A stretch of DNA of 64,000 nt from Alphaproteobacteria bacterium (GCA_050297015.1 JBNKRZ010000013.1:3676-67675); one strand, 5' to 3'. Counted from the stretch's first letter, positions 17,896 through 40,995 are shown. Numbers and translations are program-made. The notes: generated from the letters alone by a model not told the origin.

Positions 17896-19152
17896 TTAAG
17901 GCGTAATTTTACCTTGTGTTCCCTGAACAACCCATGTGCCTGAGGCGTTACCGATATCCGTGATTTCTCCAATGCCGGGCAGGGTATCGCCGACTTTAAC
18001 GCGCACCATGTCGCTGGAACCTTTCTGAGCGACATAGGCTTCACCCGGTTGAACAGAGCGCAATGTCCAGGATACCGTGACGGGAGAAACCGCCGGGGTC
18101 GGGGCAGAGGCTTTTATCTGTGCTTCTGGTTTAGCTGTTACGCGGGGCGTTGTAACTTTTTCCGCTTTAGGTGTTTCTTCTCGCACAGGCTTGGCGGCGG
18201 CTACTTTGGCAAGTTTCGCAGCTTGCTCTTTTTGCGCTTTATCGAGATTGTCGAAACGGGTTTCAAGCGTTTTCATGAAAGAGCGTATGGCCGTCAGGTC
18301 TTCGGAAGAGGTTGAATTTCCGGGCGCATTTTTTTGACGGGCAAGCGTGTCTATACGATTTTCCATGCTGTCGAGGCGATCTATAAGCGTAGAAAGTTTG
18401 TTTTGCAGATCGTCCATAGCCGTGTTGTTTATGGTTGCCGGTTGTACGGTTACAGGTGCCGTAGGGGCTTTTTGAGCAGGCTTGTTCATTACCGGCGTTT
18501 GCGGTGGCTGAACAGCAGCAGGGGCCTCGGCGGTCGCTGTTTCAACGGGCGCCGCAGGAGGTGGCATAGGTGTCAGCGGTTCCTTTGAAAAGGCTTCATC
18601 TTGTGTCATTTGCGCCGGCATAGGAGGAAACGTTTCTTCCTCTTCAAACTCAACATATTCGGTGGTGTCTTTTGTTTTATTTTGCGCTTGTAAGGCGGCC
18701 AAAGCATCAGGAGAATTCAGAAAACCAGATTCCATCGCCGGTGCAGGAGGAGCGGCTTGCTGTTCTTGGCGCGTAGGCTCTTGAGCCGTTTTTTGCGGCA
18801 GTGCTGTTTGTGGTCGTGCGGCTTGTTGCATTTGTCCGGGATTCGGTGCAGGGGGATTATCTCCGCCGCCCATAAGGAATAAAAGGACGATAACACCAAC
18901 AACGGCACAGCCGGCAATGACGATAACGTTTGAAATAGATTTTTTCTTTGCAGCTGGCGCGTTTTCTTCGCTTTCTCCGCTTTCGTCCCATTCGTCATCA
19001 TCGGAAAAATCATCAGATTCATCGAAAGAGGTGTCGTCAAAATCGGAATCATCGAATTCATCAGATTCCATATCAGCATCATCTAGAAAATCATCGTCTT
19101 GCAGTTCATTTTCTTCAAACTGATCTTCGGCTTTTTGTCCATCGGTCGTCAT
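17896..19152 (-). CDS. dotF: DotF/IcmG-like T4BSS protein (poly-acidic N-terminus, one TM, Pro/Ala-rich linker, small C-terminal beta domain)
   Basis: 418 aa, in the position after dotG as in Legionella icmE-icmG. The C-terminus WTLRSVQPGEAYVAQKGSSDMVRVKVGDTLPGIGEITDI resembles the IcmG C-terminal domain as I remember it. Confidence 0.55.
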   Translation of the reverse strand: MTTDGQKAEDQFEENELQDDDFLDDADMESDEFDDSDFDDTSFDESDDFSDDDEWDESGESEENAPAAKKKSISNVIVIAGCAVVGVIVLLFLMGGGDNPPAPNPGQMQQAARPQTALPQKTAQEPTRQEQQAAPPAPAMESGFLNSPDALAALQAQNKTKDTTEYVEFEEEETFPPMPAQMTQDEAFSKEPLTPMPPPAAPVETATAEAPAAVQPPQTPVMNKPAQKAPTAPVTVQPATINNTAMDDLQNKLSTLIDRLDSMENRIDTLARQKNAPGNSTSSEDLTAIRSFMKTLETRFDNLDKAQKEQAAKLAKVAAAKPVREETPKAEKVTTPRVTAKPEAQIKASAPTPAVSPVTVSWTLRSVQPGEAYVAQKGSSDMVRVKVGDTLPGIGEITDIGNASGTWVVQGTQGKITP

Positions 19153-19284
19153 AACTTCTATCCTTTAGTCAGGTTATAATGGTGACGTTTTTGAAATATA
19201 TTCGTTTCTACTTACTTCTGTAAATCGTTACTCATGTAGAGTTTCTTATGCCTCGTGCAAAAATAATCAAACGACGATAGGGGG

Positions 19285-20622
19285 CTATTCTTCTTTTAAT
19301 ACAGGTTGAAGGAATAATACGCCCATCGGTGTTCCCGCTTTTATGATAATAAGAGGTTCAATGTCTTCATTTTCCTCGTTTATAATATCAATGACGGCTC
19401 CGGATGCTTCTTCAAAACCGGCGAAGAGTTCTTCTCGTGGGTTGAGATCTTCGGTTGATTCGGTGGCTGTTTCTCCGGATACGGTAACGGTTGTGCTTCC
19501 TGCTTCCGCGATGGCCGATGTCATGCCTTCAAGGAAAGCGGCTGCGGCGGGAATAAACACACGGCGGAAGTAACGATGGTCAACATCGGTTGCCATGCCA
19601 ACATTGCTTGTTTCGGGGTCCAGGGCAATGGCATCAATGCTTTGTGAGATGCCATCAATTATAATACCTTCGAAAGAGACAACCAAGACTTCTTCTTCTA
19701 CGGAAAAGCTACCAATCAGGCGGCTACCGGCAAGCGGTCCGCTAACGAGTTGTGCCAAAACGGGCCCTTCGGCATCCGAATTTGCTTCAATTAGCAGCTG
19801 AGCATATTCAATTTCCCCTGCGGGAATAATAATTTCTTGTGCGTCTTTATCTGTATCGCTTGCTGTTGCCGTTGTTCCGGATGCCGATGAAGAAGAGGTT
19901 GCGGAGTCGCTTCCATCCTCCTCCAGAAAATCAGGAGAGGTGACCGTTAAATAGCGGGCTTCTAAAGGGGCTTGTCCTTCGAGAACGGTTTGCATTTGCG
20001 CGCCCATAGCATCGGCAAGCGCTTCTATAGCTTCGGTGTTGGCCCCCTTTGTTTCTTGTGACGTGCGCAACTTTTCCGCGGCAGCGTTACGCTGGGCTTC
20101 TTCGTCTTCTAATTGCTTTCTTTGTTCTAGTTCCTGACGTTGACGCTCGTCTTGAATGCGTCGCCAGCGTTCAAGAGGGTCTTCCTGTTTTTGTTTTTCT
20201 TCGATGTCGGGAACCGTGTCAACGGCCACTGCGAGGGGAACGGGAATAGCGCTCGTTCCTGTTGCCATGGCCTCTTCGAAACGTTTTTGGTTTTGTTCTT
20301 CTACGGCTTCACGATAGGCTTCACTAACTTCTTCCGTTCCCGGTGGTGCAGATACGTCAGACCCCGCTCTCATGACTGAGGTGTTTTCTATTACCGGCTG
20401 ATTATCGCCTCCAAACAGGACTACAGCGGCAACGATAACAAGCAAGACAGCCCCGATAGCGCCGAGTTTAACCATCGGGTTTTCATTCCACATCTCTTTG
20501 AAAGAGGAGCCGGTCTCAAACTCTTCAAAATCATCGAAATCCCCATTAGCATCGTCGTGATCGAAGTCACTATGATCCAAGGAATCATCATTATTCAGGT
20601 CATCGTTCAGATCATCATTCAT
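19285..20622 (-). CDS. dotG: DotG/IcmE (TraO/VirB10-like) T4BSS core protein
   Basis: 445 aa with an acidic N-terminus, a TM segment and a charged coiled region. C-terminal TrbI/VirB10-like domain IIIPAGEIEYAQLLIEANSDAEGPVLAQLVSGPLAGSRLIGSF...IIIKAGTPMGVLF. Start overlaps the dotH stop. Confidence 0.7.
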   Translation of the reverse strand: MNDDLNDDLNNDDSLDHSDFDHDDANGDFDDFEEFETGSSFKEMWNENPMVKLGAIGAVLLVIVAAVVLFGGDNQPVIENTSVMRAGSDVSAPPGTEEVSEAYREAVEEQNQKRFEEAMATGTSAIPVPLAVAVDTVPDIEEKQKQEDPLERWRRIQDERQRQELEQRKQLEDEEAQRNAAAEKLRTSQETKGANTEAIEALADAMGAQMQTVLEGQAPLEARYLTVTSPDFLEEDGSDSATSSSSASGTTATASDTDKDAQEIIIPAGEIEYAQLLIEANSDAEGPVLAQLVSGPLAGSRLIGSFSVEEEVLVVSFEGIIIDGISQSIDAIALDPETSNVGMATDVDHRYFRRVFIPAAAAFLEGMTSAIAEAGSTTVTVSGETATESTEDLNPREELFAGFEEASGAVIDIINEENEDIEPLIIIKAGTPMGVLFLQPVLKEE

Positions 20623-21652
20623 CAGAGCTGTTTCCTTCTTCTAGTATAGCCCGTATAATACGCCCGTTATCGGAAAGTAGAATAACAGGGGCGTTAGATA
20701 AGGCGTAGACATGCATGCCATCGGCTGATGAAACGGAACTATCCCAACCTGGTGACAGGAGTGTCAGCGGGGTTCTTACGTAAGTTTTCCCCGCGTAACT
20801 GTAGGCGCTTGTTCGCCCGTTTATACCCGATATAGAGAGCTTTTCCGCATCAGTAGGAGGGACACCGTCTAAAATCATATTAAGGAGCGAGCTTCCAGCT
20901 TTTATACTGATTCCGCCCTCGATTAACGGCGCAGAAGCCATGGGGCCGTATTCGGGGATCCGGGCATCAAAACGGTATTGTACGGTATCACGCCCTGTCT
21001 CTAGTGTGAAAATAACCGGTGTATCTAAGTCAAGAAGGCGCATGGACATGTTGCCGTGTGCAAAGTTAGAAAACGGTATTATGCGAATGATGTTACCGCC
21101 TTCTTCCGGATTTGTTATCTCAAAATTACCAGCCCAGCTCATATCCTGTATCGGCCAGGGCGAGCCTGTCACGTCCATTATGCTTACTGTTGTGACGTGA
21201 TTCGGAGCCATCTTGATAACAGGAGGGGTCGACCCCGGATCAAGCGAAACGGTTTCAACCTTAATTTCGGGGTGGGGGTACGGATAAATCGGCACTTCCA
21301 CGGCTTCCTGAACTTTATCGTATTGCTTTAGGACCTCACGGATCTCATCCGGTTCCAAAGGAAGAAGTCCTGTAACAGCCGCGTCGAAAGCCTGTTCTCG
21401 AATTTTTTTTCGTGTATTTTCTTGGGTGACGACGGCACTCTCCGGCGCCTGAGGAAGCCCGGATGTCGTTACCTGCATTTCTGGTGAACGGGGAGATACG
21501 TTTTTTGATACAGGCAATGCTGTATCTTTTAAACTAGGAGGGGCCCCTATTGTTGCACGAGAGAAACTGTCTTGTGCGAATGCATCGCTTAAGGGAAGGC
21601 CTAGAAAAGCAAAAGCCATCAGGGCAAATATTCCGGACTTTCGTGTTGTCAT
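20615..21652 (-). CDS. dotH: DotH/IcmK (TraN-like) T4BSS outer-membrane core protein
   Basis: 345 aa with a signal peptide. LDPGSTPPVIKM, DVTGSPWPI, LDGVPPTDAEKL and YVRTPLTLLSPGWDSSVSSADGMHVYAL match remembered Legionella IcmK blocks. Confidence 0.85.
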   Translation of the reverse strand: MTTRKSGIFALMAFAFLGLPLSDAFAQDSFSRATIGAPPSLKDTALPVSKNVSPRSPEMQVTTSGLPQAPESAVVTQENTRKKIREQAFDAAVTGLLPLEPDEIREVLKQYDKVQEAVEVPIYPYPHPEIKVETVSLDPGSTPPVIKMAPNHVTTVSIMDVTGSPWPIQDMSWAGNFEITNPEEGGNIIRIIPFSNFAHGNMSMRLLDLDTPVIFTLETGRDTVQYRFDARIPEYGPMASAPLIEGGISIKAGSSLLNMILDGVPPTDAEKLSISGINGRTSAYSYAGKTYVRTPLTLLSPGWDSSVSSADGMHVYALSNAPVILLSDNGRIIRAILEEGNSSDE

Positions 21653-21677
21653 GTGTTTAAGTCTCCTTGCTTATCCC

Positions 21678-22430
21678 TTAGCCGGGGGCGGCCAACCACT
21701 GTTCAATACCAATGCCGCTGGGGCTTTCCAGACGAGGGACGCGCACAACAATCATTTGGACCATTAAATTATCAGAGTTCATTTTGGGGCCGGATTGGTA
21801 TGTCACAATCATGGGGACTTGAACAACCCATTGGTAACGTCCCAGAACCAAGCCTTCTGACTGGATGACAGGTGCTCCACGTGGAGCCGCAGTTACGATT
21901 TGTTGATTCGCTTCGACTCGTTCCATCATGCGGGAAGATTGCAGGGCTGTTGTAAAGCTGTCCCAGCCCCGCTGTGTAAAGTTTCGGGATGATTCCTGTA
22001 AGCGCCGGCGGTAGTCGTTAAAGTTAAATGTCATGACTTCCGTTGCAGCTTGCGCAACCCACGACATAAGCGCCGGGGAACTTAAGTTTGGTTGAGAAAG
22101 GGGGACCATAGGGATCAGACGCCCATCTTCTGTCGTTGCAAAATAACGGTTTTCCGGTTTTTTTCCGTTCACGATAAAGAACATTATTCCGATAAGGGCT
22201 AGAACGGCGACTCCTTCAAGCAGAACAAGTTTTAAAAGTGAGCGGTATCCGTCACGGTAAAATTCGTTCCGGATCAAGACTGTACCCAAACCCTTTGTCA
22301 TATCAGAGGAGTTCCCCTCTTCTGTTTCAGCCTCTTTTTGGGGTGGCCGTGCTGCTTTCTTGGCATCCCTGATCCCAGATTTGGGCTTTGGCTGAGGGGG
22401 GGCTGTTCTCTTTTTTTGCTCTTCGGTCAT
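21678..22430 (-). CDS. dotI: DotI/IcmL (TraM-like) T4BSS inner-membrane protein
   Basis: LIRNEFYRDGYRSLLKLVLL..., YFATTEDGRLIPMVPLS and VQVPMIVTYQSG match the IcmL family. The ORF track extends to 22529; I prefer ATG at 22428-22430 (MTEEQKK...). Confidence 0.85.
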   Translation of the reverse strand: MTEEQKKRTAPPQPKPKSGIRDAKKAARPPQKEAETEEGNSSDMTKGLGTVLIRNEFYRDGYRSLLKLVLLEGVAVLALIGIMFFIVNGKKPENRYFATTEDGRLIPMVPLSQPNLSSPALMSWVAQAATEVMTFNFNDYRRRLQESSRNFTQRGWDSFTTALQSSRMMERVEANQQIVTAAPRGAPVIQSEGLVLGRYQWVVQVPMIVTYQSGPKMNSDNLMVQMIVVRVPRLESPSGIGIEQWLAAPG

Positions 22431-22602
22431 AATCTGTAGGGTCAGTTGAATTGATAAACAACGAATCTCTTTATTATGTACCAGAAAAAACCGTTCCCCT
22501 CCAAGAGCTAAAAGATAACATATCCGCAACTATCCCTGAAAAAAATGCAATGATGGGAAAAAACAGCTGGAGCCCTTTCAGGGATATGGTAGTTTTTGTG
22601 CA

Positions 22603-22649
22603 TTGTGATGTTAGAATATGTTAGAATATAAAAAGTGTATGTTAGCAAG
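22603..22649 (+). promoter_or_regulatory. Candidate promoter with tandem direct repeats upstream of the five-paralog operon
   Basis: TTGTGA (22603-22608), 18 bp, TATAAA (22627-22632). Perfect tandem GTTAGAATAT x2 (22610-22629) plus GTTAGCAAGA (22640-22649). Confidence 0.3.
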
Positions 22650-22663
22650 AGTGTTGGGAGAGC

Positions 22664-24109
22664 GTGCTCGGTGAGGGGCGCTACGGTAGGGCGTTGAAGC
22701 TTAGAATAAAAAAAGAAATATCTTGCGCGAATATTTCAGGAAGGCTGCCTGGTAAGTGGCGTTTCTGCATGTGTCTTGTTCTACTTTTGTCTTTCTTCTC
22801 TTTTTCAATGGTTCCTTTGCGGGATGTTTATGCAACAAGCTCTTCTTCCGGGGGGGGCGGCAGCGGAGGAAACCAGACGGCAGAACCCACGCATTCCAGC
22901 TCAAGCTGTAGCTCTGGCGCGCTTGCTCAGTTTTGTTTCGTGGCAGCCCTTGCCCATCTAGCAACGAGGTCAGCTATTAATAAAGCATATAGCGATACGG
23001 AAGATTATATCGCCGATGGCTTTCGTGACCATAGGCGGGATTTTATCTTGGGAGAGTTTTGGGAGAATATGGTTCTGGCCTCATTCAAGGCTATGGTCTC
23101 TGAAACGACAAGTATGTCTTTGGCCCAAGTGATGATGGCGGGCGCTTACTTTGATGCAAAACAGCAAATGAGCGTGCAACGTCTTTTTCAGACTAAAATT
23201 GCGCAGGCACATAAGGATTATTTCCCCAGTACAGGTATGTGTGTGATGGGAACCATGGCGCAAGGTCTTGCGGCGGCTAGCCGTAATGCTGAAAATACGG
23301 CATTTGTCATGAGTGAAAGGGCGCTGGAGCGTAATCTAAATAACGCTTCATCCAATGCGGCGCTGGGGGAGGGGGATGATAAATCTTCCCGGTTTTCACT
23401 TTTTAAAAGTAGGCACTGCGATCCCAGACATGGTGATGGACAATTTGTTGCGCTTTGCGGATCGACCCCCCCGGAAGGTTTTGATCGTGATGTAGATTAT
23501 ACCGCGACATTCGAGTATCCCTATACCCTTGATATAAATCTTTTTGATGCAAGTGTAACGGGGGCTGAAATGGATCTATGGGGGTTTGCTAACAATCTTT
23601 ATGGTCATGAGGTCTTTACGCCGATTCCTCCTTCTTATTTTTCTTTGGGCGATAATCAGCGGGAATATTTGAATTTGCGTTCCGTTGTTGCTAAGCGGAG
23701 TGTTGCTGAAAATTCATTTAACGCCCTTGTTTCAATGAAGGTGGCTGGGCCTCCTACGCCGTCAGGTGAAAACTATGTGCATGCTGTTTTGACGCAACTT
23801 GGTTTGTCGACGGATGAGGCTATGCATATTGTTGGTGAACGTCCGAGCTATTATGCGGCGATGGAGGTGTTAAGTAAAAAAATATACCAGGATCCCGAAT
23901 TTTACACGGATCTTTATGATAAACCTGTAAATGTTGATCGCAAGATTGCGGCGATGCGGTCTATCGGTTTGATGCAAGATATGGATATCTTTGAAAGCAA
24001 GCTGCGAAATGAAATGTTGCTTTCCATGATTCTTGAAGCGCGGCTCGATGATGCGCAGCAGGATTTGCAGGGAAGACTTGATGTCTTGCCGTCAGGAGGT
24101 AAACGTTAG
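22664..24109 (+). CDS. Paralog 1 of 5: signal-bearing protein of an unrecognised family (T4BSS-adjacent)
   Basis: 481 aa from GTG 22664 (alternative ATG 22769). N-terminal hydrophobic segment and a Ser/Gly-rich stretch. Family blocks YFDAKQQMSVQRLF, AHKDYFPSTGMCVMGT, KRSVAENSFN and GERPSYYAAMEVLSKKIYQDPEFYTDLYDKPVNVDRK. Confidence 0.8.
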   Translation: MLGEGRYGRALKLRIKKEISCANISGRLPGKWRFCMCLVLLLSFFSFSMVPLRDVYATSSSSGGGGSGGNQTAEPTHSSSSCSSGALAQFCFVAALAHLATRSAINKAYSDTEDYIADGFRDHRRDFILGEFWENMVLASFKAMVSETTSMSLAQVMMAGAYFDAKQQMSVQRLFQTKIAQAHKDYFPSTGMCVMGTMAQGLAAASRNAENTAFVMSERALERNLNNASSNAALGEGDDKSSRFSLFKSRHCDPRHGDGQFVALCGSTPPEGFDRDVDYTATFEYPYTLDINLFDASVTGAEMDLWGFANNLYGHEVFTPIPPSYFSLGDNQREYLNLRSVVAKRSVAENSFNALVSMKVAGPPTPSGENYVHAVLTQLGLSTDEAMHIVGERPSYYAAMEVLSKKIYQDPEFYTDLYDKPVNVDRKIAAMRSIGLMQDMDIFESKLRNEMLLSMILEARLDDAQQDLQGRLDVLPSGGKR

Positions 24110-25434
24110 TGCTGGGGCGTATTTTAAAGCCAGAGCTGGGAATAGATAAGAAGAGAAGCTTTGATAGGCTTGTCTTTTTCTCTCTTTTTATTTTTCTTTC
24201 TACGGTTTCTTACAGCCGTCCGGGTTATTCTTGTACGACATGCAGTATGATTTATTGTGAAGCCTCTAATACGGCAGATTTTGTCACTGAAGAACACAAT
24301 TATATTCGTGAGTATATGGGACCGGAATTTAATGACCTTGAGACCTTTATTCAGGATATTCTTGTCGAGAGATATATTTTACCGATGATTGATGCGCTTG
24401 CGACCCCTTCCCCCGCGTTATCGGCTTATTCTATGGGGATTATCGGGACGTTTTTTGATGCGAAAAACCAGTTGGAAGTCGAACGTATGTTTCAAGAGCT
24501 TTCTGCTGAAGCGCATAAAGATTATTTGCCCAGTGTCGGTGTTTGTAAGGTCGGAACCCTTATCCGCTCTTTGGCTGCCGCGGAGCAGACGGGGGGGGAG
24601 ACCGTTTCGATTTTAGCTAAACGTTCTCTGGATCGTCATTTGGGACGCGTGAATAGTGCCGCTTCTGAAGGGGTGAAAGAGGACGTGGAGTCCCGTTTTG
24701 AGCAGTTTCGAAATATTTACTGTAAGGGCAGTGATTTTGGCGCGGATTTCGCGCCCTTATGTTTAGGGACAAATCCTGCGCGCTATAATCGTGATGTTGA
24801 TTATGGTTTAACGGTTGATGATGCCATGACGTTGAATATTGCTTTTGGGGATTCAACCCTTAACGATACGGAAGAAGATATTTGGGCTTTATCTAACAAC
24901 CTTTATGGTTCCCGTGTTTTGCAGCGTATACCGGAAGTGTTCTTCCTGGATGAGGATAAGCAGCAAGCTATTTTGGATCAGCGTTCTGTTATTGCCAAGC
25001 GTAGTGTTGCGGAGAATTCATTTAATACGATTGTTGGTATGAAGACGCCGGGGTCGCTTGAGAGTGCTGATGCTTCCGGGGTTAATACGACAGGTTATAT
25101 GAATGTGGTGTTGGAGCAATTGGGAATTGCGGCGGATGAGGCCACTCACATATATGGTGAGCGCCCCAGTTATTATGCCCAGATGGATTTTTTGACGAAA
25201 AAAGTTTATCAGGACCCGAATTTCTATACGAACTTATATGATACGCCTGTGAATATTGATCGGAAACGGGTGACACTTCAGGCCATTGGTTTGATGCAGG
25301 ATTTTGATACGTTGGAGAGTTATTTGAGGACGGAAGCCATGCTTTCTGTTCTTTTGGAGTTGGAAGTGAATAAGTTGCAACGGAATGTGCAGGGAGATCT
25401 TTCAACGTGGACGACATCGGGGAAAAGGAATTAG
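24109..25434 (+). CDS. Paralog 2 of 5, same family
   Basis: 441 aa. GTG start overlaps the stop of paralog 1 by 1 nt. Blocks FFDAKNQLEVERMF, AHKDYLPSVGVCKVGT, KRSVAENSFN and GERPSYYAQMDFLTKKVYQDPNFYTNLYDTPVNIDRK. Confidence 0.85.
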   Translation: MLGRILKPELGIDKKRSFDRLVFFSLFIFLSTVSYSRPGYSCTTCSMIYCEASNTADFVTEEHNYIREYMGPEFNDLETFIQDILVERYILPMIDALATPSPALSAYSMGIIGTFFDAKNQLEVERMFQELSAEAHKDYLPSVGVCKVGTLIRSLAAAEQTGGETVSILAKRSLDRHLGRVNSAASEGVKEDVESRFEQFRNIYCKGSDFGADFAPLCLGTNPARYNRDVDYGLTVDDAMTLNIAFGDSTLNDTEEDIWALSNNLYGSRVLQRIPEVFFLDEDKQQAILDQRSVIAKRSVAENSFNTIVGMKTPGSLESADASGVNTTGYMNVVLEQLGIAADEATHIYGERPSYYAQMDFLTKKVYQDPNFYTNLYDTPVNIDRKRVTLQAIGLMQDFDTLESYLRTEAMLSVLLELEVNKLQRNVQGDLSTWTTSGKRN

Positions 25435-25453
25435 AAAAAGGAATTCTGTGCGG

Positions 25454-26767: not shown

Positions 26768-26768
26768 G

Positions 26769-30169: not shown

Positions 30170-30196
30170 TCTTTCCTTAGATACCGTATTCTGATC

Positions 30197-30212: not shown

Positions 30213-30266
30213 TGGAAGAAAGAGAGAAAATGAATTTGTGATGATTGTCATGTAAGGAATGAAGGT

Positions 30267-32624: not shown

Positions 32625-32658
32625 CGTGAAAACATAGGATAAACAAAGAGATAAGAAA

Positions 32659-33741
32659 ATGACCAATATATCAACAATAGCCCAGTCTCTTAATCAGATT
32701 GAACGTTTCAAAACGATGCAAGCGGATTTAGCAACATTACAATATCAATTGAGCTCCGGCAAAAAAGCGCGCTTATTTAGTGAGTTAGGAGGTGACGTTA
32801 CAAAGTCGGAAAGGGCGCGGGCGAATTTTCAGTCGCTCGAAACATATATCAATAATATTGATGTTGCGGCGCGCCGTAGCAAAATGATGACTAATGCTAT
32901 TCAGGAAACGCAAGCGCAAGCTGAAAACATTCTTAATGCCTTGGTTGTTCAAACTCAGGAGGGGGAAATTGAGCTGGCTTCAATTAATAAGCTGGCGGGG
33001 GATATACAGAATTATTTGATTACGCTTTATAATCAGAATGATGGGGATCGTTATTTGTTCGGCGGTGCGGAAACGCAAGATCTCCCTTTGAATGATACAG
33101 GCGCGTTGGATACCTATCTCCAGACGAACATCAGTAATTGGGTGAATACCGGCCCGATGACAGTGACAAGCGATCAACTCATCAGCAGTTATCGCGACAC
33201 AACGCAGCTGAACGATACCATTGTGGGCTATTCGGCAAAATTAAGTAGCGGTTCAACGCGCGGTGTTTATGTTCGGGTCGATGAAAGGGCCGAAATGGAA
33301 TACACCGTCCGGGCCAATGAAGCGAATTTCCGTGACGTTCTTGTGTCCGTCTCCATGATTAAAAATCTGACGGGGGGGATTGATGAGGTGACGCTCGAAA
33401 GCACCGATGCTACGGGCACGGTTACAGCACCGGGGGCCGATAGAAGCGAGCAGAGTGACAATTTTTACGCCGTTTTTAATGATTTGGCCGAGATGCTGAC
33501 AACGGCGATTGATGGGCTCGATCAGTCGCATTATGATCTTAGTCAGATGCAGGCGCGTATGTCTCAGATCCGTGACAACCATGAGCAGGATAAAAACGTT
33601 CAGGCCAGCATTATCAGTGACGTAGAAGATGCTGATATGAACGATACAGCTGTAAAGCTTAATTTGCTTCAAGTGCAAATGGAGGCGGCGTACCGCGTTA
33701 CCGCCAGCATTAGCGATCTGACATTGGTGAATTTTATATAG
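32659..33741 (+). CDS. flgL: Flagellar hook-associated protein 3 (FlgL)
   Basis: 360 aa with flagellin-like N- and C-terminal helices (…LATLQYQLSSGKK…; …LNLLQVQMEAAYRVTASISDLTLVNF). Located directly downstream of flgK. Confidence 0.75.
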   Translation: MTNISTIAQSLNQIERFKTMQADLATLQYQLSSGKKARLFSELGGDVTKSERARANFQSLETYINNIDVAARRSKMMTNAIQETQAQAENILNALVVQTQEGEIELASINKLAGDIQNYLITLYNQNDGDRYLFGGAETQDLPLNDTGALDTYLQTNISNWVNTGPMTVTSDQLISSYRDTTQLNDTIVGYSAKLSSGSTRGVYVRVDERAEMEYTVRANEANFRDVLVSVSMIKNLTGGIDEVTLESTDATGTVTAPGADRSEQSDNFYAVFNDLAEMLTTAIDGLDQSHYDLSQMQARMSQIRDNHEQDKNVQASIISDVEDADMNDTAVKLNLLQVQMEAAYRVTASISDLTLVNFI

Positions 33742-33749
33742 TGATTTAA

Positions 33750-35162
33750 TTAATGTCCGGCTTGTTCGATAACCAGAACAGCAGGTTGTTTTCGTGTGTT
33801 CGGGTACAGACGGCCTACGGGGCGGTTATCACTATCGTCAAAGGAGTTAAGAATTTCCTGAAGAGCGTTGGAATAAGAGCCCTGTACTTGAATATCTTCA
33901 AGCAAAAGATAGTCTTGAGGCGCATACCATAGAACTTGCGCACCGATAATGTTGGACCAGTTGGTTAGGACTTGGCGTAGGCTGGCACCTTTTTCTGCCT
34001 TCCAAGGGTATTTTTCTTCTTGCGTCGTCCCTGTTATCTCTTTTGTGGAAATAAGCGTTTTGGGTTGACGTGTTGCTGCCGTTTCTGTCGGAAGGGCCGG
34101 TGGTATTATATGGCTTTCTTTCTCTGCGCTCTCGGGCTTAGCCGGAGCAGCTTTCATTGCCAGAGCCATTTTGTTTTGCCGGTGCGGCTGCGTAGGGGGC
34201 AGACCATCATTTTGTACATGCCTTATATAATCTGTCTCGTTTTGCTCCAGATCGGCGGCGTTCTCATATTTTTCTAAATTGAGGGTCTGATCGGAAACAG
34301 GCGCGATTTTTTCTTCCGGCGTTACGGATAGAGGCTCAGATTTTTTTTTTGAAATATGTACGATGTTGTTATGAATTTTTATTTGTAAATCATAAGCAGC
34401 CAAGGCATCCGAAAGAACGTATTGCCAGCTTTGTCCGCCGTTCCAGTCAACGCGTTGTCCTTGATTAATGCCGGGCGCGAAAGCGAAGGCATAGCTGGGG
34501 GGCACGATTTGACGCAGAGCCAGAACAAGGGGAATGTCACGGCCAAATCCCGCAATCATATCGGAGGGCAAAGCCTCAGTTTTTGCCTCTGCGGTTTTAG
34601 ACGGAGAGGTTTCAACGGTCGTCACAGGCGCCATAGGTGCGGGAGATTCTATTTCAGGTGTGGCAACAATTTCCGTTTTATTCTCATGAGAGATGGGAGC
34701 TGTTGAAGCGCTTTGTTTATGAACGGTGCGTGGCGGGATTGTTTCCAAAGAGGCCGGTGTTTCTTCCGGCGCAGAAATAATCCGGCGCGCCGGCGCTTGT
34801 TCTTCCAGCGGCATAGGCTGTATTTCCTGTGAAAGAACCGGTGCGCTTTGTTCTACAGATTCGCCTTGCAATGCTGTCGGGGCGATCGGCGGGGGCATTT
34901 GAGCCGCAGGCGTGGAGGCTGTGTTTTCATCAAGATCGGCGACAGCCGGAACATCCGGTGTGAGAGGCGGCATAAATATCTGTTGCTGGGGGGCCGGTTG
35001 CGGCGGCGGTGTCCAGTCAAATCCCGCTTGCGCCGGCGCGGTCGCCAGAAAAAATGTGCCGACCGACAATGTCAAAAGACAGGCCGAAGCAGAAGAACGG
35101 GGAGCCAAAAGAGAAACAGGGTGATTTTTTTTCATTGCATGCATCTTCTTAAATTTATTCAC
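33750..35162 (-). CDS. Secreted Pro-rich protein with two TcpQ/PilL-like domains
   Basis: 470 aa with signal peptide ...APAQA. Middle domain GRDIPLVLALRQIVPPSYAF...VDWNGGQSWQYVL. C-terminal domain WKAEKGASLRQVLTNWSNIIGAQVLWYAPQDYLL...GSYSNALQEILNSF resembles the TcpQ/PilL family as remembered. Confidence 0.5.
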   Translation of the reverse strand: MNKFKKMHAMKKNHPVSLLAPRSSASACLLTLSVGTFFLATAPAQAGFDWTPPPQPAPQQQIFMPPLTPDVPAVADLDENTASTPAAQMPPPIAPTALQGESVEQSAPVLSQEIQPMPLEEQAPARRIISAPEETPASLETIPPRTVHKQSASTAPISHENKTEIVATPEIESPAPMAPVTTVETSPSKTAEAKTEALPSDMIAGFGRDIPLVLALRQIVPPSYAFAFAPGINQGQRVDWNGGQSWQYVLSDALAAYDLQIKIHNNIVHISKKKSEPLSVTPEEKIAPVSDQTLNLEKYENAADLEQNETDYIRHVQNDGLPPTQPHRQNKMALAMKAAPAKPESAEKESHIIPPALPTETAATRQPKTLISTKEITGTTQEEKYPWKAEKGASLRQVLTNWSNIIGAQVLWYAPQDYLLLEDIQVQGSYSNALQEILNSFDDSDNRPVGRLYPNTRKQPAVLVIEQAGH

Positions 35163-35286
35163 AATAGCAAAGTGCTACGCCTCCCCACCTTTGTGACGTG
35201 ATTTGAGAGGAAATTCAAGAGGGTGTGATTAAAATAAAGGGCTTATCCGCAGATGCAAAGCATGATGCCTTGCTTTTGGAGGGGGG

Positions 35287-35577
35287 CTAGCCATAATCAT
35301 CTAGTTTTCTGCGGTGAAGCGAAACATAACCTGGGCGGTTTACACCAATAATCCAAACGCGTAAGGCGCGCATTGCGGCCGAAAAAGTAAGGCCTCTTTT
35401 TTCTAGAAAACGAAAAATCAACACTGTGATAATGGCAAAGGCAATGGTGATCGGGCGAAAGTAAACCAAAAGGATGCAAAAGGGCAAGGCCGCCCGCGCA
35501 TCCATGTTGAAAAAACGCGCTGGCCGCATGGTGTCACGCCAATGCCATACGAGACCTTCTTCTTCTTCTTCGCTCAT
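35287..35577 (-). CDS. icmT: IcmT/TraK-like T4BSS inner-membrane protein
   Basis: 96 aa. HWRDTMRPARFFNMDARAALPFCILLVYF...LTFSAAMRALRVWIIG matches the IcmT family pattern. Confidence 0.8.
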   Translation of the reverse strand: MSEEEEEGLVWHWRDTMRPARFFNMDARAALPFCILLVYFRPITIAFAIITVLIFRFLEKRGLTFSAAMRALRVWIIGVNRPGYVSLHRRKLDDYG

Positions 35578-35654
35578 GAAAAATATAACCTCTTAAAGTG
35601 TTTCTTCGCGAGTTCCCTAATATACAACTGTTACGCAAAAAGGTGAATAAAGTC

Positions 35655-35932
35655 TTTAGATACTGTAGTCACATGTTATGTACATTTCTGCGCAAGCAGG
35701 TTTTTGATGAATGTGCGCGAAAAATGCGCAGAGCATAGCCATAGCTACGGTTAAGCATTTTGAGCGAACAGACGCAAAAAGATACCGCGCCCTTCGGGTT
35801 CATTTTTCAGATAAAGTTATCATCGTTTTTGCTCCTTGAATATGCTTTGGCATGTCCTGCGGACCAAAAACTTGATCCTTTTATCTGAAAAACGAACAGA
35901 AATAGGCATAACATGTGACTACAGTATCTAAA
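35655..35932. repeat. 278-bp element bounded by perfect 26-bp inverted repeats, with nested internal hairpins
   Basis: TTTAGATACTGTAGTCACATGTTATG (35655-35680) is the exact reverse complement of 35907-35932. There is an inner 13-bp IR TTTTTCAGATAAA (35803-35815) / TTTATCTGAAAAA (35880-35892), plus CTGCGCA/TGCGCAG near 35688-35730. Confidence 0.85.
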
Positions 35933-35949
35933 TAGAGAGCAGATAAGAA

Positions 35950-37104
35950 TTATTCGCCGCCTGAAGCCAGAAGCAGATACCAGCGCCGTTCGATTGTGCC
36001 TTGTTCAAATTCGATTCGGGCGGCTTCCGCCATTGTTCGGCCATAGGCAGGGACCAGGCGTTGAATGTTGGATTGCCACTCTGTAAAGTCCATGTCGAGG
36101 AGTTTTTCTCGTACCTCATCAGGGAAAATCATGAATTCACGAATCCCGCACCGTCCACCGCCGACACGGGGGACCAGCGCTTGTGTTACGATCAGACGTA
36201 GCGTTTCCATCATCGCATAGGCCCGCTCGGCGCGTTCATTCGGATCGAAGGACGAAATCATCCGCTGAACGGTGGCCGCAACGCCAGTGGTGTGTGTCGT
36301 TGTGTAAACGGCATGCCCTGTTTGCGCCGCTTCAATGGCGGCGGATATTGTTTCCCTATCACGCGCCTCCCCGACGAGGATCACTTCCGGTTTGCGGCGT
36401 AAGGCATTCCGAACGCCGTGAGCAAAGTTGGGGAGGTGCCGGGGAATTTCTGTTTGAGACACGAGTGAGCGCGGGCTTTTTATCGCATCGTACACATATT
36501 CAATAGGCGCTTCGTAGGTAAGCATTTTTCCGCAGCCGTGTGGCCGTTCCAGTAGCATACGATTCCCGGCGGCCAGAAGGGTACTTTTCCCGGAACCCGT
36601 GGGACCGGTGATAACAACAAGTCCTTGCCGAGGGGACCAGTTCGCCCGGATTTCTTCTTCGATTCCCAAATCATCCATACTGGGGGGGACGTTGGGAAGA
36701 ACCCGCATGGTAATCTGTGCGCCGTCGCGGCCTTGCGAGAGGATAGCTGTGATATTTACACGAAAACGAATTCTTGTGTAGCGGTCGGGACGGATTTCGT
36801 AGGACATATCAAGATCCTTACCGCTGGCAAGACGGGCTTGCGCTTCCGGGCCGTAAATGGTGTTTAGAATGATCGCCATATCTGCGGCATCTAGAGGGCG
36901 GAAGGTTGCCGGGTATAAAACACCGCCGACTTCATGATAAATGGGCCGATCGGATTGAAATGTAATATCGGATGAATCTTGTTTCACAGACCAAAGCAGG
37001 AAGGGGTCTATGTCCTCTTCCCGTAGGCGCGACGGCTCATCAGGCCATGTGCGTCCTTTGGTATCCGATGCTTTTATAAGGGTTATCGGTTCGCGGGGTG
37101 CCAT
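35950..37104 (-). CDS. dotB: DotB (TraJ/PilT-like) T4BSS ATPase
   Basis: 384 aa with Walker A VITGPTGSGKSTLLAA, ILVGEARD and GHAVYTTTHT. Located directly downstream of dotC. Confidence 0.9.
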   Translation of the reverse strand: MAPREPITLIKASDTKGRTWPDEPSRLREEDIDPFLLWSVKQDSSDITFQSDRPIYHEVGGVLYPATFRPLDAADMAIILNTIYGPEAQARLASGKDLDMSYEIRPDRYTRIRFRVNITAILSQGRDGAQITMRVLPNVPPSMDDLGIEEEIRANWSPRQGLVVITGPTGSGKSTLLAAGNRMLLERPHGCGKMLTYEAPIEYVYDAIKSPRSLVSQTEIPRHLPNFAHGVRNALRRKPEVILVGEARDRETISAAIEAAQTGHAVYTTTHTTGVAATVQRMISSFDPNERAERAYAMMETLRLIVTQALVPRVGGGRCGIREFMIFPDEVREKLLDMDFTEWQSNIQRLVPAYGRTMAEAARIEFEQGTIERRWYLLLASGGE

Positions 37105-37931
37105 GTTTCCGCTCCGGGTACAAAGGAGGGCATGCCCGTGAGCTGTATAGCACGGTCCCCAATTCTCAAAGTTGTTGCGCTGCCCGTTACACCACGGTCA
37201 ACTTGCAGGGTATAAGGGGGAGAGACCATGCCTTGCGCAAGAAGCATACGGTAACGGACCATGCCGCGATAGTCGGCTGTCAGGCGGTTTAGATCTTGTT
37301 CAAAGATTTCATTGGCTTGCTTTACGCCCTCGTTCCAACCTTGTCGGATCCACTTGACCCATTTTTTGCGTTCCTCTTTGTCGTTAGGGCGCAATATATC
37401 CGGTGGAGGCTCGACATTTCCCCAAGCCCGTTCCATATAGTTCCGCCAAGAACGGGGAGCTGTAACAATTCTGGCATTTTCACTGAAATTATAAATACGG
37501 TCAGCAACGGCAGCTTCACTGCCCGTGGTGTTGACAATCATGGCATTTATATCTTCTGAAATAATAGGAGGTTCAACGAGAAGGCCCGATGGTGCAGGAA
37601 TTAGAAGGTTTCTAAAATCAAACACACGATCCATGTAGCTCATATTTTGATTCATTTCCTGACGGATATAATAGGTTCGCCAAGCTAATCCTCCTCTGGC
37701 ACCGTATGAGAGTGCCGCCTCTTTTAAGGCTTCCCCACGAATATTAATCGGAAGGGCTAGATTTGAATTTTCGTCTATAATGTTTATTTTGGGAATGCTT
37801 TCCAGATCGGATAATTCCGGCGGTGGTGTGAATTCAGAGTCAAGATTCTCACCAGCATAAACGCCGCCGCCGACAAAAAGGAAAGATGTTAAAATGAGCG
37901 CAAAAAACAGTTTATGATGGAAAATAGGCAC
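37083..37931 (-). CDS. dotC: DotC (TraI-like) T4BSS outer-membrane lipoprotein
   Basis: 282 aa. LKEAALSYGARGGLAWRTYYI, YRMLLAQGMVSPPY and RGVTG match remembered Legionella DotC blocks. Confidence 0.85.
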   Translation of the reverse strand: MPIFHHKLFFALILTSFLFVGGGVYAGENLDSEFTPPPELSDLESIPKINIIDENSNLALPINIRGEALKEAALSYGARGGLAWRTYYIRQEMNQNMSYMDRVFDFRNLLIPAPSGLLVEPPIISEDINAMIVNTTGSEAAVADRIYNFSENARIVTAPRSWRNYMERAWGNVEPPPDILRPNDKEERKKWVKWIRQGWNEGVKQANEIFEQDLNRLTADYRGMVRYRMLLAQGMVSPPYTLQVDRGVTGSATTLRIGDRAIQLTGMPSFVPGAETWHPANR

Positions 37932-37937
37932 GGATTT

Positions 37938-38450
37938 TTATCCCCCTATACCAGTGTTAGGTGCATAGTGAACCTCAACCATTTTCCGGGCTGCATCAAC
38001 TTTGATATCGGCGCGCATGCCCAGTTGAAGTCCGATGCTGCGTAAAATATCTATAACCGGTTTATTCTCAGCATCGACGGAAACGACCAGAGGGATAGGG
38101 GGAGGATTTCCTAGAATTTGAAAGGTGTAACCGGCGCGGTCTGAAAGCTGTTTGGTTATCGGTTCAACGGGTCCCACCCAATTAACCGTAACGGCACGGT
38201 TTAACTCTGGTGGGACATCGGTTGCCGGACCCACAGCTATGCCGGGCGCGCGTGCTTGTTCAACGGCGGCCAGAGTTTCAAGCGCTGTTGATGCTTTATC
38301 GGCAGCTTCCGCCAGCATAAGAGAGACACTGTCCGGCGTCGCGACCAATTGTGGCGGATCAACTCTTTTGGATGAACAGCCGGAAACCAAAAGCGCGACG
38401 GGCATCAAAAGTGTCAAAGAAAACCGTGAAAGCTTAGATAACATACGCAA
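37938..38450 (-). CDS. dotD: DotD (TraH-like) T4BSS lipoprotein
   Basis: 170 aa with lipobox LVSGCSS. MLAEAADKASTALETLAAVE, VTVNWVGPVEPITKQL, IPLVVSVDAENKPVIDILRSIG and MVEVHYA parallel Legionella DotD. Confidence 0.8.
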   Translation of the reverse strand: MRMLSKLSRFSLTLLMPVALLVSGCSSKRVDPPQLVATPDSVSLMLAEAADKASTALETLAAVEQARAPGIAVGPATDVPPELNRAVTVNWVGPVEPITKQLSDRAGYTFQILGNPPPIPLVVSVDAENKPVIDILRSIGLQLGMRADIKVDAARKMVEVHYAPNTGIGG

Positions 38451-38593
38451 AACCCCAAAACGATATAAAACAGGACTAGCCTATCATTCAAAACAGAAGA
38501 CTATAATGTCTTTCGAATCTATCCTTTCATAAGAAAGAGGACAAGAGATCAATGCCGCTTATAAAAAAATATCAACAGGAACGCTGTGGATTA

Positions 38594-38998
38594 TTACTCA
38601 ATCAGACCGTGATTTTCCATTGAGGCCACAACACGTTCCTCATAAGCGTCGCCATAAAGCGGCGTGCGGGAATGATAATGGGATATGGCTTGAGATAAAT
38701 CCTGTGTCTCATCAAGGTGCGTTCGCAAAATCCAGGCCGCCACACCAATGTTTGTGCACGGATCATCTCTCACCCAGCGACGGGCTGTTTCATAATTAAC
38801 GCCCCAGTTTTTGGCGAGTTCCGGAACCCATAATGTGTTGATTTGCATCGGTCCCAGATCGTAGGAACCGTTTTTATTGGGGCCGACTTCTTGACCGACT
38901 CGTCCTGATTCAACCTGATAAATTCCCAGTAAGACAGCCGGAGGAAGGGCGTAAGTTTGTGAAGCTAGTAGCAGACAAGCCGCGATAACTTTTCCCAT
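38594..38998 (-). CDS. Lytic transglycosylase (SLT domain)
   Basis: 134 aa with a signal peptide. LLGIYQVESGRVGQEVGPNKNGSYDLGPMQIN carries the catalytic Glu and SLT motifs. Confidence 0.8.
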   Translation of the reverse strand: MGKVIAACLLLASQTYALPPAVLLGIYQVESGRVGQEVGPNKNGSYDLGPMQINTLWVPELAKNWGVNYETARRWVRDDPCTNIGVAAWILRTHLDETQDLSQAISHYHSRTPLYGDAYEERVVASMENHGLIE

Positions 38999-39001
38999 GG
39001 T

Positions 39002-39994
39002 TTAGTTTCCTTCCTCTTGTGTGCCGTCAGATTCTTTCGCGGGTTTGAAGAAAGACATCGGATTATAGGGGGCTTCTCCCTGTACGGGTTGTGCAGGTGT
39101 CTCAGGCTGTACGGGTTGTGTGGGTGTTTCGGGGGGCACCGGCTGCGCAGGCGCTTCAGACGGCAGCGGCTTTTCCTGAATCGCGACAGGTTGTGTAACC
39201 GTGCTTGAAGATATAGGAATGCTGCTTTGCGCGAGTACTTCCAGCATTTTTGCTCTGATATCAAAGGCTTTCCAAACGCTGTCGAGAGAAGGGGGCGTTT
39301 CTTCCCGGTTGTTTGTCGTGCTCAGGCGCGTTGTTTCGGCTTGATGGCAAGAGGCGTAAATGGTGCAGAGTGTATTGAACAGTGCCAGCTCAGCGCGCTT
39401 GGTTTGTTGCGCTGTGTTTGTGGGGATATCCATATCGGCCAGCATTGTCTTTGCTTTTTGTGTTAAGCGTCCGGCTACATCCTGCGCCAGTTTTTGCTCC
39501 GGCAGGCCGAAAGAGAATGTGGCGATGCTGTTTATAACGGGAATAAGAGCATGGACGTATTGGATCGCTATCTGCGCATTGTCGCCGGGGGTGCCGGGGG
39601 TCATGTTTTCCAAGCGAATCGTGTTGTCCGCCGCCGGATCGAAATTGTCGGAAAAGGCCAGCGCAGCGTCAAGCGTTTGTGCAATAGCTTGTATATCTGA
39701 ATCGTCTGGTGTTTTGTTCCCGGTTTTATATTTGTGCGCGATTAGTGGTGAGACGAGTGCAGCAAGCGCCAGACGTAAAGCGTCCGTTTGCCCTTGTGCA
39801 TCGTTAATATCCATCTTGCTGGTTATTGATACACTGAGTTCCACCGCTTTTGTTAGAAGGAGCGCCATTTGTCGGGCTTCTTGCCCCGTTGTTTCATTGG
39901 TGCCGTCTTGAGGTGTGACTTCTATGACGGCGGACGAAAGGGGTGCGCCGAGTCTCTCAAGAAATTGCAGTATAAAGTCTGAACGTTGATCCAT
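39002..39994 (-). CDS. Hypothetical protein with C-terminal PETP(A/T)QPVQ repeats
   Basis: 330-aa ORF between the DsbC-like and SLT genes. No family recognised. Its C-terminal 9-aa repeats are encoded by 27-bp tandem repeats at 39080-39160. Confidence 0.5.
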   Translation of the reverse strand: MDQRSDFILQFLERLGAPLSSAVIEVTPQDGTNETTGQEARQMALLLTKAVELSVSITSKMDINDAQGQTDALRLALAALVSPLIAHKYKTGNKTPDDSDIQAIAQTLDAALAFSDNFDPAADNTIRLENMTPGTPGDNAQIAIQYVHALIPVINSIATFSFGLPEQKLAQDVAGRLTQKAKTMLADMDIPTNTAQQTKRAELALFNTLCTIYASCHQAETTRLSTTNNREETPPSLDSVWKAFDIRAKMLEVLAQSSIPISSSTVTQPVAIQEKPLPSEAPAQPVPPETPTQPVQPETPAQPVQGEAPYNPMSFFKPAKESDGTQEEGN

Positions 39995-40101
39995 GATTAA
40001 AGAATAAATAATTCGTGACGATACTATATAATTGTTAAAGCACTACCATTTCTGTCTACATACACCAACTGTGTCCCGGAAGACAAGGACGGTAGTCCCA
40101 T

Positions 40102-40995
40102 TTACTTGATTGTGGCGGTTTGTGCCGTGGCAGGCAAGTCCGCAATCAGGTCATCCACGTTTTTTGGAGGGCCGGGCATGATTTTTACCAAGCCGTCTTT
40201 CCCCCGGTAAATGGAAAGGGGGGTTGAATCGAATTTCCATGATTGCATGATAGAAAGGTTGCGCTCGACTCCTTGTGTGTTGATGGTGTTGCTGATGGGG
40301 AGGGCGTCCTTATCGCCGTCCACATGCGCCCACCAACGTTCTTGCGGGTCCGGGATGGCAAGAAGGAATGCCGCTTGTGATTTTGTATCCGGACGCCCGC
40401 CCACCGGGATGATGCGCATTTGTAGTTTGCCCGTTTCTATGTAGTCATGCCGTACTTTTTGGATGAAGGCGTGGCAATGCGGGCATTGCGGATCGATGAA
40501 AGTATAAATAATAGGTGCATTTTTATCGCCGAGAGGAATCCAGTTGCTGGCCTCGATATTACTGAAAAGCTGTTCTGCCGGTGTTTTAAAAGCTTTTTGT
40601 GTTTTTGTTGTCTTTGCGTCGTCTGGGGCGTCCAAACGCGAGGTGGCAAAGAAATCTATCGCGGCATCTTCATCTTTTTGGAGAGCGGCAATTTGATCTA
40701 GCGTAACCATTTTTCCATTTTTATCGAACAGGACACCGGATAATATGGCTTGCCTGTCAGCTGTGACATAGAAATATTGCTCTTGTCCGCCCTTAATGGC
40801 GAGCCAGCCGTCCAGCCCGTGCTCTCGTCCCAGATAACGCATTTGTGTGCCTTCAGCCGCAAGGTTTTTTAGCACTTCCGGCATAGGGGGTGTTTCACCT
40901 GTTTGCGCAAGAGCCGCCGTTGTCAGAAAAATGCAGGCGGCTCCCAAGGTTACGGAGCGGGCGATGGAGTGCAGGGAAAATAAGGTGAACGTCAT
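40102..40995 (-). CDS. Periplasmic thiol:disulfide oxidoreductase, DsbC/DsbG-like two-domain architecture (CPHC active site)
   Basis: 297 aa with a signal peptide, an N-terminal dimerisation-like domain and a thioredoxin fold with FIDPQCPHCHAF. Confidence 0.7.
   Translation of the reverse strand: MTFTLFSLHSIARSVTLGAACIFLTTAALAQTGETPPMPEVLKNLAAEGTQMRYLGREHGLDGWLAIKGGQEQYFYVTADRQAILSGVLFDKNGKMVTLDQIAALQKDEDAAIDFFATSRLDAPDDAKTTKTQKAFKTPAEQLFSNIEASNWIPLGDKNAPIIYTFIDPQCPHCHAFIQKVRHDYIETGKLQMRIIPVGGRPDTKSQAAFLLAIPDPQERWWAHVDGDKDALPISNTINTQGVERNLSIMQSWKFDSTPLSIYRGKDGLVKIMPGPPKNVDDLIADLPATAQTATIK

Follow-up and report, generated by a model that had tools for sequence, protein, structure and literature searches.

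A predicted Dot/Icm-like type IVB secretion locus with tandem TraW/IcmX-like genes in Micavibrio-like Alphaproteobacteria

Genes and features of the locus

We examined a 64,000-nt stretch of DNA from an Alphaproteobacteria bacterium (GCA_050297015.1, JBNKRZ010000013.1:3676-67675; hereafter the window) and focused on positions 17896-40995, which carry genes of a Dot/Icm-like type IVB secretion system (T4BSS). The original prediction, made without database searches, had described this region as two truncated Dot/Icm blocks interleaved with housekeeping and flagellar genes. Genes were assigned from sequence by profile searches against Pfam and NCBIfam, by comparison with PDB chains and by tblastn. 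The profile searches placed a first block, DotF-G-H-I, at 17896-22529 on the minus strand and a second block, also on the minus strand, at 33750-40995, which comprises a DsbC/TrbB-like gene, a gene of unknown function, an SLT gene, DotD, DotC, DotB, IcmT and a TcpQ/PilL-like gene. Between the two blocks, on the plus strand, lie five related open reading frames (ORFs; 22664-30169) followed by FlgK and FlgL. The dotI-dotH-dotG-dotF order was predicted to be that of Legionella, and the profile matches, which give the same operon order, agree. All of the genes named for the second block, apart from the hypothetical one, were likewise matched by Pfam or NCBIfam at the predicted positions. The core components are:

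17896-19152, minus strand: DotF/IcmG/TraP-like protein, fast-evolving; weak matches (NF038218, 1.9e-6; TraP, 6.5e-5) and position after DotG
19285-20622, minus strand: DotG/IcmE/TraO, short form (445 aa) with a VirB10-like C-terminal domain; PF03743 (TrbI) 1.5e-10, NF033900 7.6e-51
20615-21652, minus strand: DotH/IcmK, outer-membrane core; PF12293 4.5e-81, IcmK of PDB 6x62 165 bits
21678-22529, minus strand: DotI/IcmL, VirB8 class; PF11393 5e-64, NF038072 199.7 bits (cut-off 175)
35287-35577, minus strand: IcmT/TraK, VirB3 class; NF038220 85.4 bits (cut-off 40)
35950-37104, minus strand: DotB ATPase, VirB11/PilT class; TIGR02524 394.7 bits, DotB of PDB 6geb 363 bits
37083-37931, minus strand: DotC/TraI lipoprotein, outer-membrane core; PF16932 4.3e-79, DotC of PDB 6x62 153 bits
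37938-38450, minus strand: DotD/TraH lipoprotein; PF16816 3.3e-39, NF033882 113.5 bits

The predicted dot/icm assignments were sustained by these searches, strongly for DotC, DotD, DotH, DotI and IcmT and weakly for DotF. Only 18 DotF homologues were found. A family profile matched a plasmid ORF downstream of DotG (9e-9). Three of the proteins matched solved Legionella proteins among the PDB chains (DotC, DotH and DotB). The DotB score against TIGR02524 lies below the curated value of 463, yet far above those of other families (TraJ, 237 bits), and DotB scored 197 bits with a second DotB structure, 6gef. DotG scored 173 bits with NF033900 compared with 90 bits with the TraO model. By bit score, the Legionella-type models fit DotB, DotG and DotI better than the IncI models do. 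The VirB3 class of IcmT/TraK follows a review table (PMC12624023). We placed the true start of DotI probably near 22430, because the gene call in a metagenome-assembled genome (MAG) is 250 aa long. Of the parts that characterize a T4BSS, the window holds the DotC/DotD/DotH core, DotG, DotI and IcmT, the DotB ATPase and, as described next, the IcmX/TraW class; we count DotG and DotF to the outer-membrane core as well.

The five ORFs between the blocks are paralogs of one another:

22664-24109, plus strand: TraW/IcmX-like paralog 1 (VirB5 class), signal peptide; family hidden Markov model (HMM) match, hhalign
24109-25434, plus strand: TraW/IcmX-like paralog 2; family HMM, hhalign
25385-26767, plus strand: TraW/IcmX-like paralog 3; plasmid tblastn, hhalign
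26769-28151, plus strand: TraW/IcmX-like paralog 4; hhalign of the family
28148-30169, plus strand: TraW/IcmX-like paralog 5, with an N-terminal extension of ~300 aa; sequence comparison

An N-terminal signal peptide and a conserved domain of ~330 aa are common to them, and the genes are tightly packed. Direct queries of the paralogs against Pfam, NCBIfam and PDB gave no match. A family HMM built from 40 members selected one of 1074 six-frame ORFs of a Pseudomonas MPF_I plasmid, a TraW-like ORF beside DotA/TraY, and the alignment of the two is colinear, conserved cysteines included. When paralog 3 was compared by tblastn with 72,556 plasmids, the sole target was the TraW-like gene, found in 25 MPF_I plasmids. 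We also aligned the paralog family by hhalign to a plasmid TraW profile made from seven TraW-like proteins, one of which is annotated traW and one of which stands in a TraW, x, DotA/TraY arrangement; the probability was 98.0% (E 2.4e-13, 255 columns). In a published correspondence table, TraW of R64 equals IcmX and VirB5, and TraY equals DotA and VirB6 (PMC12624023). In Legionella, DotA together with IcmX makes up a pentameric channel gate (10.1101/2025.06.23.660953). The plasmid TraW profile did not recover IcmX from PDB, and the step from TraW to Legionella IcmX rests on the PMC12624023 table. An AlphaFold model of a paralog from the five-sequence alignment had a mean confidence (pLDDT) of 38.

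With these results, we conclude that, as judged from sequence, the five paralogs are members of the MPF_I TraW family and T4BSS parts of the TraW/IcmX class. They had been listed among the genes separating the two blocks; the HMM, plasmid tblastn and hhalign results show that they are not foreign to the system. Because the paralogs are of the TraW family, the two blocks form a single T4BSS locus with flgKL embedded in it, and flgK and flgL are the only non-T4SS genes within 17896-40995. The predicted interleaving thus stands for the flagellar genes, whereas the housekeeping genes only flank the region. Throughout, loci fetched from related genomes carry L-numbers, and gene-presence counts are over 84 loci. 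At 50% identity the TraW/IcmX-like family forms 1261 clusters, many of its members have long N-terminal extensions, and copies per genome range from 2 (M. aeruginosavorus) to at least 5 (the window, L016 and L088).

The remaining genes and features of the region are:

33750-35162, minus strand: TcpQ-domain (PilL-like) protein with a long Pro/Ala-rich linker; PF10671 1.6e-13
38594-38998, minus strand: SLT lytic transglycosylase, VirB1-like accessory; PF01464 2e-9, 31% identity to an MPF_I plasmid SLT
39002-39994, minus strand: hyp330, a conserved protein with a Pro-rich tail ending NPMSFFK; in 66 of 84 loci
40102-40995, minus strand: DsbC/DsbG-like thiol:disulfide isomerase; Thioredoxin_4, DsbC_N
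30267-32624, plus strand: FlgK, hook-associated protein 1, co-oriented with the paralogs; PF22638, PF06429, PF00460
32659-33741, plus strand: FlgL, hook-associated protein 3; Flagellin_N, Flagellin_C
17842-17873, no strand: bidirectional terminator-like hairpin with A and T runs, AAAAAAAAGCGGCCTGATCAGCCGCTTTTT, between the convergent asd and dotF; read from the sequence
22530-22663, no strand: divergent intergenic region between dotI and the first TraW/IcmX-like gene; read from the sequence

Three of these genes have counterparts on plasmids. The TcpQ-like family profile matched a plasmid TcpQ gene (6.7e-27), and by this match the window protein corresponds to the TcpQ-family gene that is first in the MPF_I thin-pilus operon. 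Similarly, the DsbC-like family profile matched a plasmid DsbG (2.5e-27); we take the window protein to resemble TrbB of IncI plasmids. The helper genes (TcpQ-like, DsbC-like and SLT) suggest a putative ancestor of the IncI type. By eye, hyp330 has no evident signal peptide or membrane segment, its NPMSFFK ending is invariant among the homologues in the 66 loci, and we found no homologue of it in Pfam, NCBIfam, PDB or the MPF_I plasmid loci. FlgK occupies the matching position in 57 of the 84 loci and is not there in L016 and L045.

The hairpin terminator that had been claimed beside asd was found, as listed. A divergent promoter had also been claimed before dotI; the divergent region is there, but consensus promoter and terminator scans gave counts that were not above shuffled controls, with no signal above chance at 22530-22663. 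The same region contains, within 22610-22649, a 10-bp tandem repeat (GTTAGAATAT, two copies at 22610-22629) and GTTAGCA. Words like GTTAGATAA occur in the matching region between dotI and the paralogs in L088 and L094, in the orientation opposite to that of the window.

Relatives, age and the break after DotF

We scanned one genome per species, found 223 with a close DotC and fetched the top 80. In public records, proteins identical to those of the window are confined to one fragmentary MAG, GCA_050297395.1. More than 2000 homologues of DotC exist; identity is 56-70% for each of the best 120, of which the named ones are Rhodospirillales or Micavibrio MAGs. The top 80 of the 223 are labelled Micavibrio sp., Alphaproteobacteria, Rhodospirillales or Pseudobdellovibrionaceae/Bdellovibrionales, and they include the complete genome of M. 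aeruginosavorus HCB189. The Bdellovibrionota labels follow the legacy filing of Micavibrio at NCBI. Public labels in the clade comprise Micavibrio, Alphaproteobacteria, Rhodospirillales, Pseudobdellovibrionaceae, Bdellovibrionales, Gemmobacter and Patescibacteria (L013, L016, L030, L040, L045, L054, L079 and L081; P0159). In genome phylogeny, Micavibrio falls within the Alphaproteobacteria near the Rhodospirillales and is an epibiotic predator (PMC3189940). The relatives are Micavibrio-like, in keeping with the predicted alphaproteobacterial placement; a placement within Legionellales does not apply.

We compared gene order by tblastn of the window proteins against all fetched loci. Most loci, that of M. 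aeruginosavorus HCB189 (L082) among them, share the order Bax1-I, M48, LemA, FIST, DsbC-like, hyp330, SLT, DotD, DotC, DotB, IcmT, TcpQ-like, FlgL, FlgK, paralogs, DotI. Relative to GCA_020638175.1, nonsynonymous divergence (pN) was 0.12-0.20 for DotB, DotC, DotD and SLT and 0.09-0.17 for neighbouring genes, with synonymous divergence (pS) saturated. Over all pairs of 33 genomes, Dot-gene distances correlated with flanking-gene distances at a Mantel rho of 0.38 (p about 5e-4) and with FlgK distances at a rho of 0.62, while a star comparison, which used identity to the window only, gave no correlation between Dot and housekeeping genes.

We also compared GC content at third codon positions (GC3), a check that the prediction had proposed for T4BSS and core genes. 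GC3 is lower in the Dot genes (0.47) and the paralogs (0.44) than in core genes (0.58), and flgKL is likewise low (0.47). The lower GC3 is no sign of recent import, because flgKL has the dip too and the synteny is order-wide. Pfam scans of most of the larger window ORFs found no relaxase, integrase or transposase, as had been predicted, and the single tRNA gene of the window, tRNA-Ala at 44850, stands 4 kb off the block. We rejected a recent island or an integrative and conjugative element, since there are no mobility genes and no tRNA gene at either boundary, and the synteny extends across the order. Taken together, the order-wide synteny, the housekeeping-like pN and the Mantel correlation favour the predicted ancient, domesticated and rearranged T4BSS over a recent island, and we conclude from these comparisons of genes that the T4BSS is old and vertically kept in Micavibrio-like Alphaproteobacteria.

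In relatives, the operon does not stop at DotF. After DotF, L088, L094 and L102 have a TraQ/DotE-like gene, a small DotP-like gene, DotN (NF038221, 1e-25) and DotO (~1000 aa), the last of which in relatives is 38% identical to plasmid IcmB over 1000 aa. Further downstream in these three loci, past DotO and some small genes, comes rpmH-rnpA-yidC. All of the ~20 metagenome loci with sequence upstream of DotO have DotE, DotP and/or DotN before it. The pattern is broken at two places only: in the window, where asd follows DotF, and in GCA_020638175.1, where PBP1A precedes DotO. In this genome, the nearest long relative, DotO (~530 kb) and DotC (~890 kb) lie ~360 kb apart on the same 2.09 Mb contig. 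We found no DotE, DotP, DotN or DotO in the window by tblastn with Micavibrio-type queries. This result, together with the tblastn searches with plasmid queries given below, bears out the predicted absence of DotA and DotL/M/N/O from the window. The presence of asd after DotF in the window and of PBP1A before DotO in GCA_020638175.1 indicates that this sub-lineage scattered its system. On gene order, we thus read the end after DotF as a derived, recent local break of this sub-lineage, and the hairpin at 17842-17873, where relatives carry DotE-P-N-O, as marking its rearrangement breakpoint. The block had been called truncated, which is true of the DotF end at asd here, but the continuation in relatives makes it a local derived state. 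The split of dotDCB from the icm block is no anomaly by itself; in Legionella, too, dotDCB stands apart from the icm block.

Several observations concern the genes beyond DotF in relatives. In all relatives, DotO is followed by three conserved small genes (L088, 16658-18923; L092, 13009-15251; L094, 13003-16957). Their products are a ~180-aa membrane protein, a ~125-aa soluble protein and a low-complexity protein of ~380-410 aa; none has a family match, and size and position would allow them to be additional components or substrates of the Dot/Icm system. DotE and DotP occur in tandem copies in L110 (4003-7008), L113, L115, L118 and L121, with up to ~5 DotP-like genes, and DotP weakly matches the TrbC/VirB2 pilin family. 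The DotE-like protein at 7140-8750 of L094 has 536 aa and four repeats. The more distant alphaproteobacterial locus L090 (GCA_016124645.1) has DotI, a DotI-like gene, DotH, G, F, E, P, N and O; many ankyrin-repeat genes flank them (1-5166 and 17173-21212), and no TraW/IcmX-like paralogs stand beside DotI.

Comparison with known systems

The locus resembles the Legionella-type Dot/Icm system in its homologues of DotB, C, D, F, G, H, I and IcmT, joined in relatives by DotE, P, N and O, in the operon order DotI-H-G-F(-E-P-N-O), in having dotD-C-B as a unit of its own and in lacking a relaxase. It differs in its host, an alphaproteobacterial predator rather than a gammaproteobacterial intracellular parasite, in its short DotG, in its five tandem TraW/IcmX-like genes and the flgKL inside, and in its PilL/TcpQ-like, DsbC-like and SLT helpers, which are as in IncI. 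Profile scans of the window found no IcmS/W, IcmQ/R, DotK, DotJ, IcmF, DotU or long, repeat-bearing DotG. It is not a Legionellales Dot/Icm system in the strict sense, because these specific parts were not found in the window, DotG has 445 aa and the host is Micavibrio-like.

The likeness to MPF_I plasmids lies in other features. On the Pseudomonas plasmid NZ_CP149855.1, as here, DotD, DotC, DotB and IcmT are followed by a TcpQ-family gene. The plasmid order is DotD, C, B, IcmT, two genes, the TcpQ-family gene, PilN, PilO2, PilP, an ATPase, a T2SS F-family protein, a pilin, an ATPase and PilV, and the plasmid also has SLT, DotM, TrbC/DotL and DsbG. With IncI-type systems (R64, MPF_I) the locus shares SLT, the DsbG/TrbB-like protein and the TraW family, and the plasmids also have tandem TraW-like pairs. 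Unlike IncI, however, the Micavibrio system is chromosomal and fixed in an order-level lineage, the window is without relaxase, replication genes and integrase, and the identity of its DotC to plasmid copies does not exceed 38% (the value of the best one), compared with 53-70% within the lineage. In one relative, L045, PilL/TcpQ, PilN, PilO, PilP, PilQ, PilR and possibly a pilin (3148-11397) directly follow DotD, C, B and IcmT; most relatives have flgL-flgK where L045 has these pilus genes.

Two type IVA systems also invite comparison. The Trw system of Bartonella resembles this one in its multiplied tandem VirB5-class genes, with VirB2-class genes multiplied in relatives here, and in a locus without a coupling protein. 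Trw multiplication may serve to diversify contact with target cells. In contrast, Trw is type IVA rather than IVB and is unrelated in sequence, and for Micavibrio a loss of the coupling protein is putative. The X-T4SS of Xanthomonadales is of type IVA (VirB/D4) and has its own defined class of effectors. No effectors of that class came up here, where no search was aimed at them. This bacteria-killing system (PMC12428579) would be the analogue in function should the Micavibrio machine pass toxins into bacterial prey on contact.

Two other stretches of the window drew our attention. Positions 4055-14734 hold a cluster like those of type IV pili and type II secretion systems, with an A24 prepilin peptidase, a response regulator, an MshL/PilN-like secretin, a choice-of-anchor-D/ASH protein, a GspE/PilB-like ATPase, a weakly GspF-like platform protein and two pseudopilin-like ORFs. 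We considered whether this cluster is a relocated IncI thin-pilus operon and rejected the idea; only the ATPase matches the pil genes of L045, at 28%. At 60974-62077, directly after murE in the dcw cluster, is a 367-aa ORF with no Pfam match at E <0.01, in the position where murF would be expected.

Interpretation and rival explanations

We consider it probable that the 17.9-41 kb region is the main chromosomal locus of a vertically inherited, Dot/Icm-like T4BSS (MPF_I) of Micavibrio-like predators, broken after DotF. The envelope, ATPase and tip-class genes of a T4BSS that it holds are intact, conserved and fixed on the chromosome of a predatory lineage. Systems classed as pT4SSi were reported by MacSyFinder in seven marine Micavibrionales, where VirB4 and more than six parts were required (PMC9418006). 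That definition needs no coupling protein, and the window shows features of the pT4SSi type, with no relaxase, oriT machinery, integrase or replication genes among the scanned ORFs and a chromosomal position that is fixed across the order. A T4BSS of Micavibrionales is mentioned once, in passing, in the literature, without description or study.

Several points weigh against this interpretation. The genome paper of M. aeruginosavorus ARL-13 reported no type IV secretion system; strain HCB189 plainly has the locus (L082). By tblastn with plasmid queries, neither the window nor ~2 Mb of related loci gave a match to DotA/TraY, DotL/TrbC or DotM. In GCA_020638175.1, DotO has no DotE, P or N beside it either, and the sub-lineage may have lost parts. 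Among the 120 DotO matches listed, none is more than 78% identical to DotO of GCA_020638175.1 and none can be assigned to the species of the window. In addition, GC3 of the locus is ~0.1 under that of core genes, the ankyrin-repeat surroundings of L090 hint at eukaryotic targets, and a role against prey is something that we purely infer.

Dot/Icm machines are known to inject proteins into eukaryotic cells, and these predators may use theirs on bacterial prey. If the machine assembles and works, contact with prey could open the channel for protein delivery or, alternatively, the predator could be held to its prey. The multiplied TraW/IcmX-like proteins would be variable parts of a tip or gate, and the multiplied, weakly VirB2-like DotE/DotP of relatives may also serve as variant tips. 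The paralogs are co-oriented with flgK-flgL, and we speculate that the motile attack phase might see them expressed alongside late flagellar genes. Within the locus, flgK-flgL itself is a passenger. The break in the sub-lineage would have taken DotE-DotP-DotN-DotO off the end of the dotIHGF operon. More tentatively, and with clear doubt, we suggest that a Dot/Icm machine was turned on prey and became the contact apparatus of epibiotic predation, with variable TraW/IcmX and DotE/DotP setting the prey range, and that this machine may be sister to, or the origin of, the Dot/Icm of Legionellales.

We hypothesized that the system could instead be an attachment organelle rather than a translocator, in which, as in Trw, the coupling protein was lost and variable surface parts bind target cells. 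Consistent with this idea, no DotL or DotM was found near any Dot block in ~125 loci, the TraW/IcmX-like copies are tandem, vary in number between genomes and form a very diverse family, and DotE/DotP are in tandem in the five loci named above, with DotP weakly VirB2-like. However, the negative result for DotL covers these loci only, DotB, DotO and DotN are retained and conserved, and the Trw parallel is tentative. We regard an attachment organelle as rather improbable.

Another explanation is that the locus is the decaying remnant of an integrated IncI-like conjugative element, without a working machine and most degraded here after the loss of DotE-P-N-O. The absence of DotE, P, N, O, A, L and M from the window, the break at the asd boundary, the low GC3 and a PilL/TcpQ-like gene without a pilus operon would all fit. 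Against decay, every ORF is intact, the synteny is order-wide with purifying selection on par with that on housekeeping genes, DotO of GCA_020638175.1 is intact elsewhere on its contig, and the window ORFs scanned include no relaxase, integrase or transposase. We consider a remnant very unlikely. Hardly credible at all is the idea that the system works, as in Legionellales, on eukaryotic hosts (protists) and is unrelated to bacterial predation: the bit scores of DotB, DotG and DotI lean to the Legionella-type models, ankyrin-repeat genes flank L090 and most relatives are uncultured MAGs of unknown lifestyle, but the locus is present in M. aeruginosavorus (L082), an obligate predator of bacteria (PMC3189940), and the window ORFs scanned showed neither ankyrin repeats nor any other domain of eukaryotic type.

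A vertically inherited T4BSS of Micavibrio-like predators would matter in three respects. The TraW/IcmX-like family has no Pfam model, and its many members are probably tip or gate proteins of T4SSs. Published accounts trace Dot/Icm to the Legionellales and a few related gammaproteobacterial families, and a vertically inherited alphaproteobacterial relative would provide an outgroup with which the passage from conjugation to protein injection, and its timing, could be studied. Finally, how Micavibrio kills and feeds from the outside is unexplained, and a Dot/Icm-like machine conserved in over 200 related species stands out as a candidate for the apparatus; cultured M. aeruginosavorus makes the idea of a predation apparatus accessible to test.

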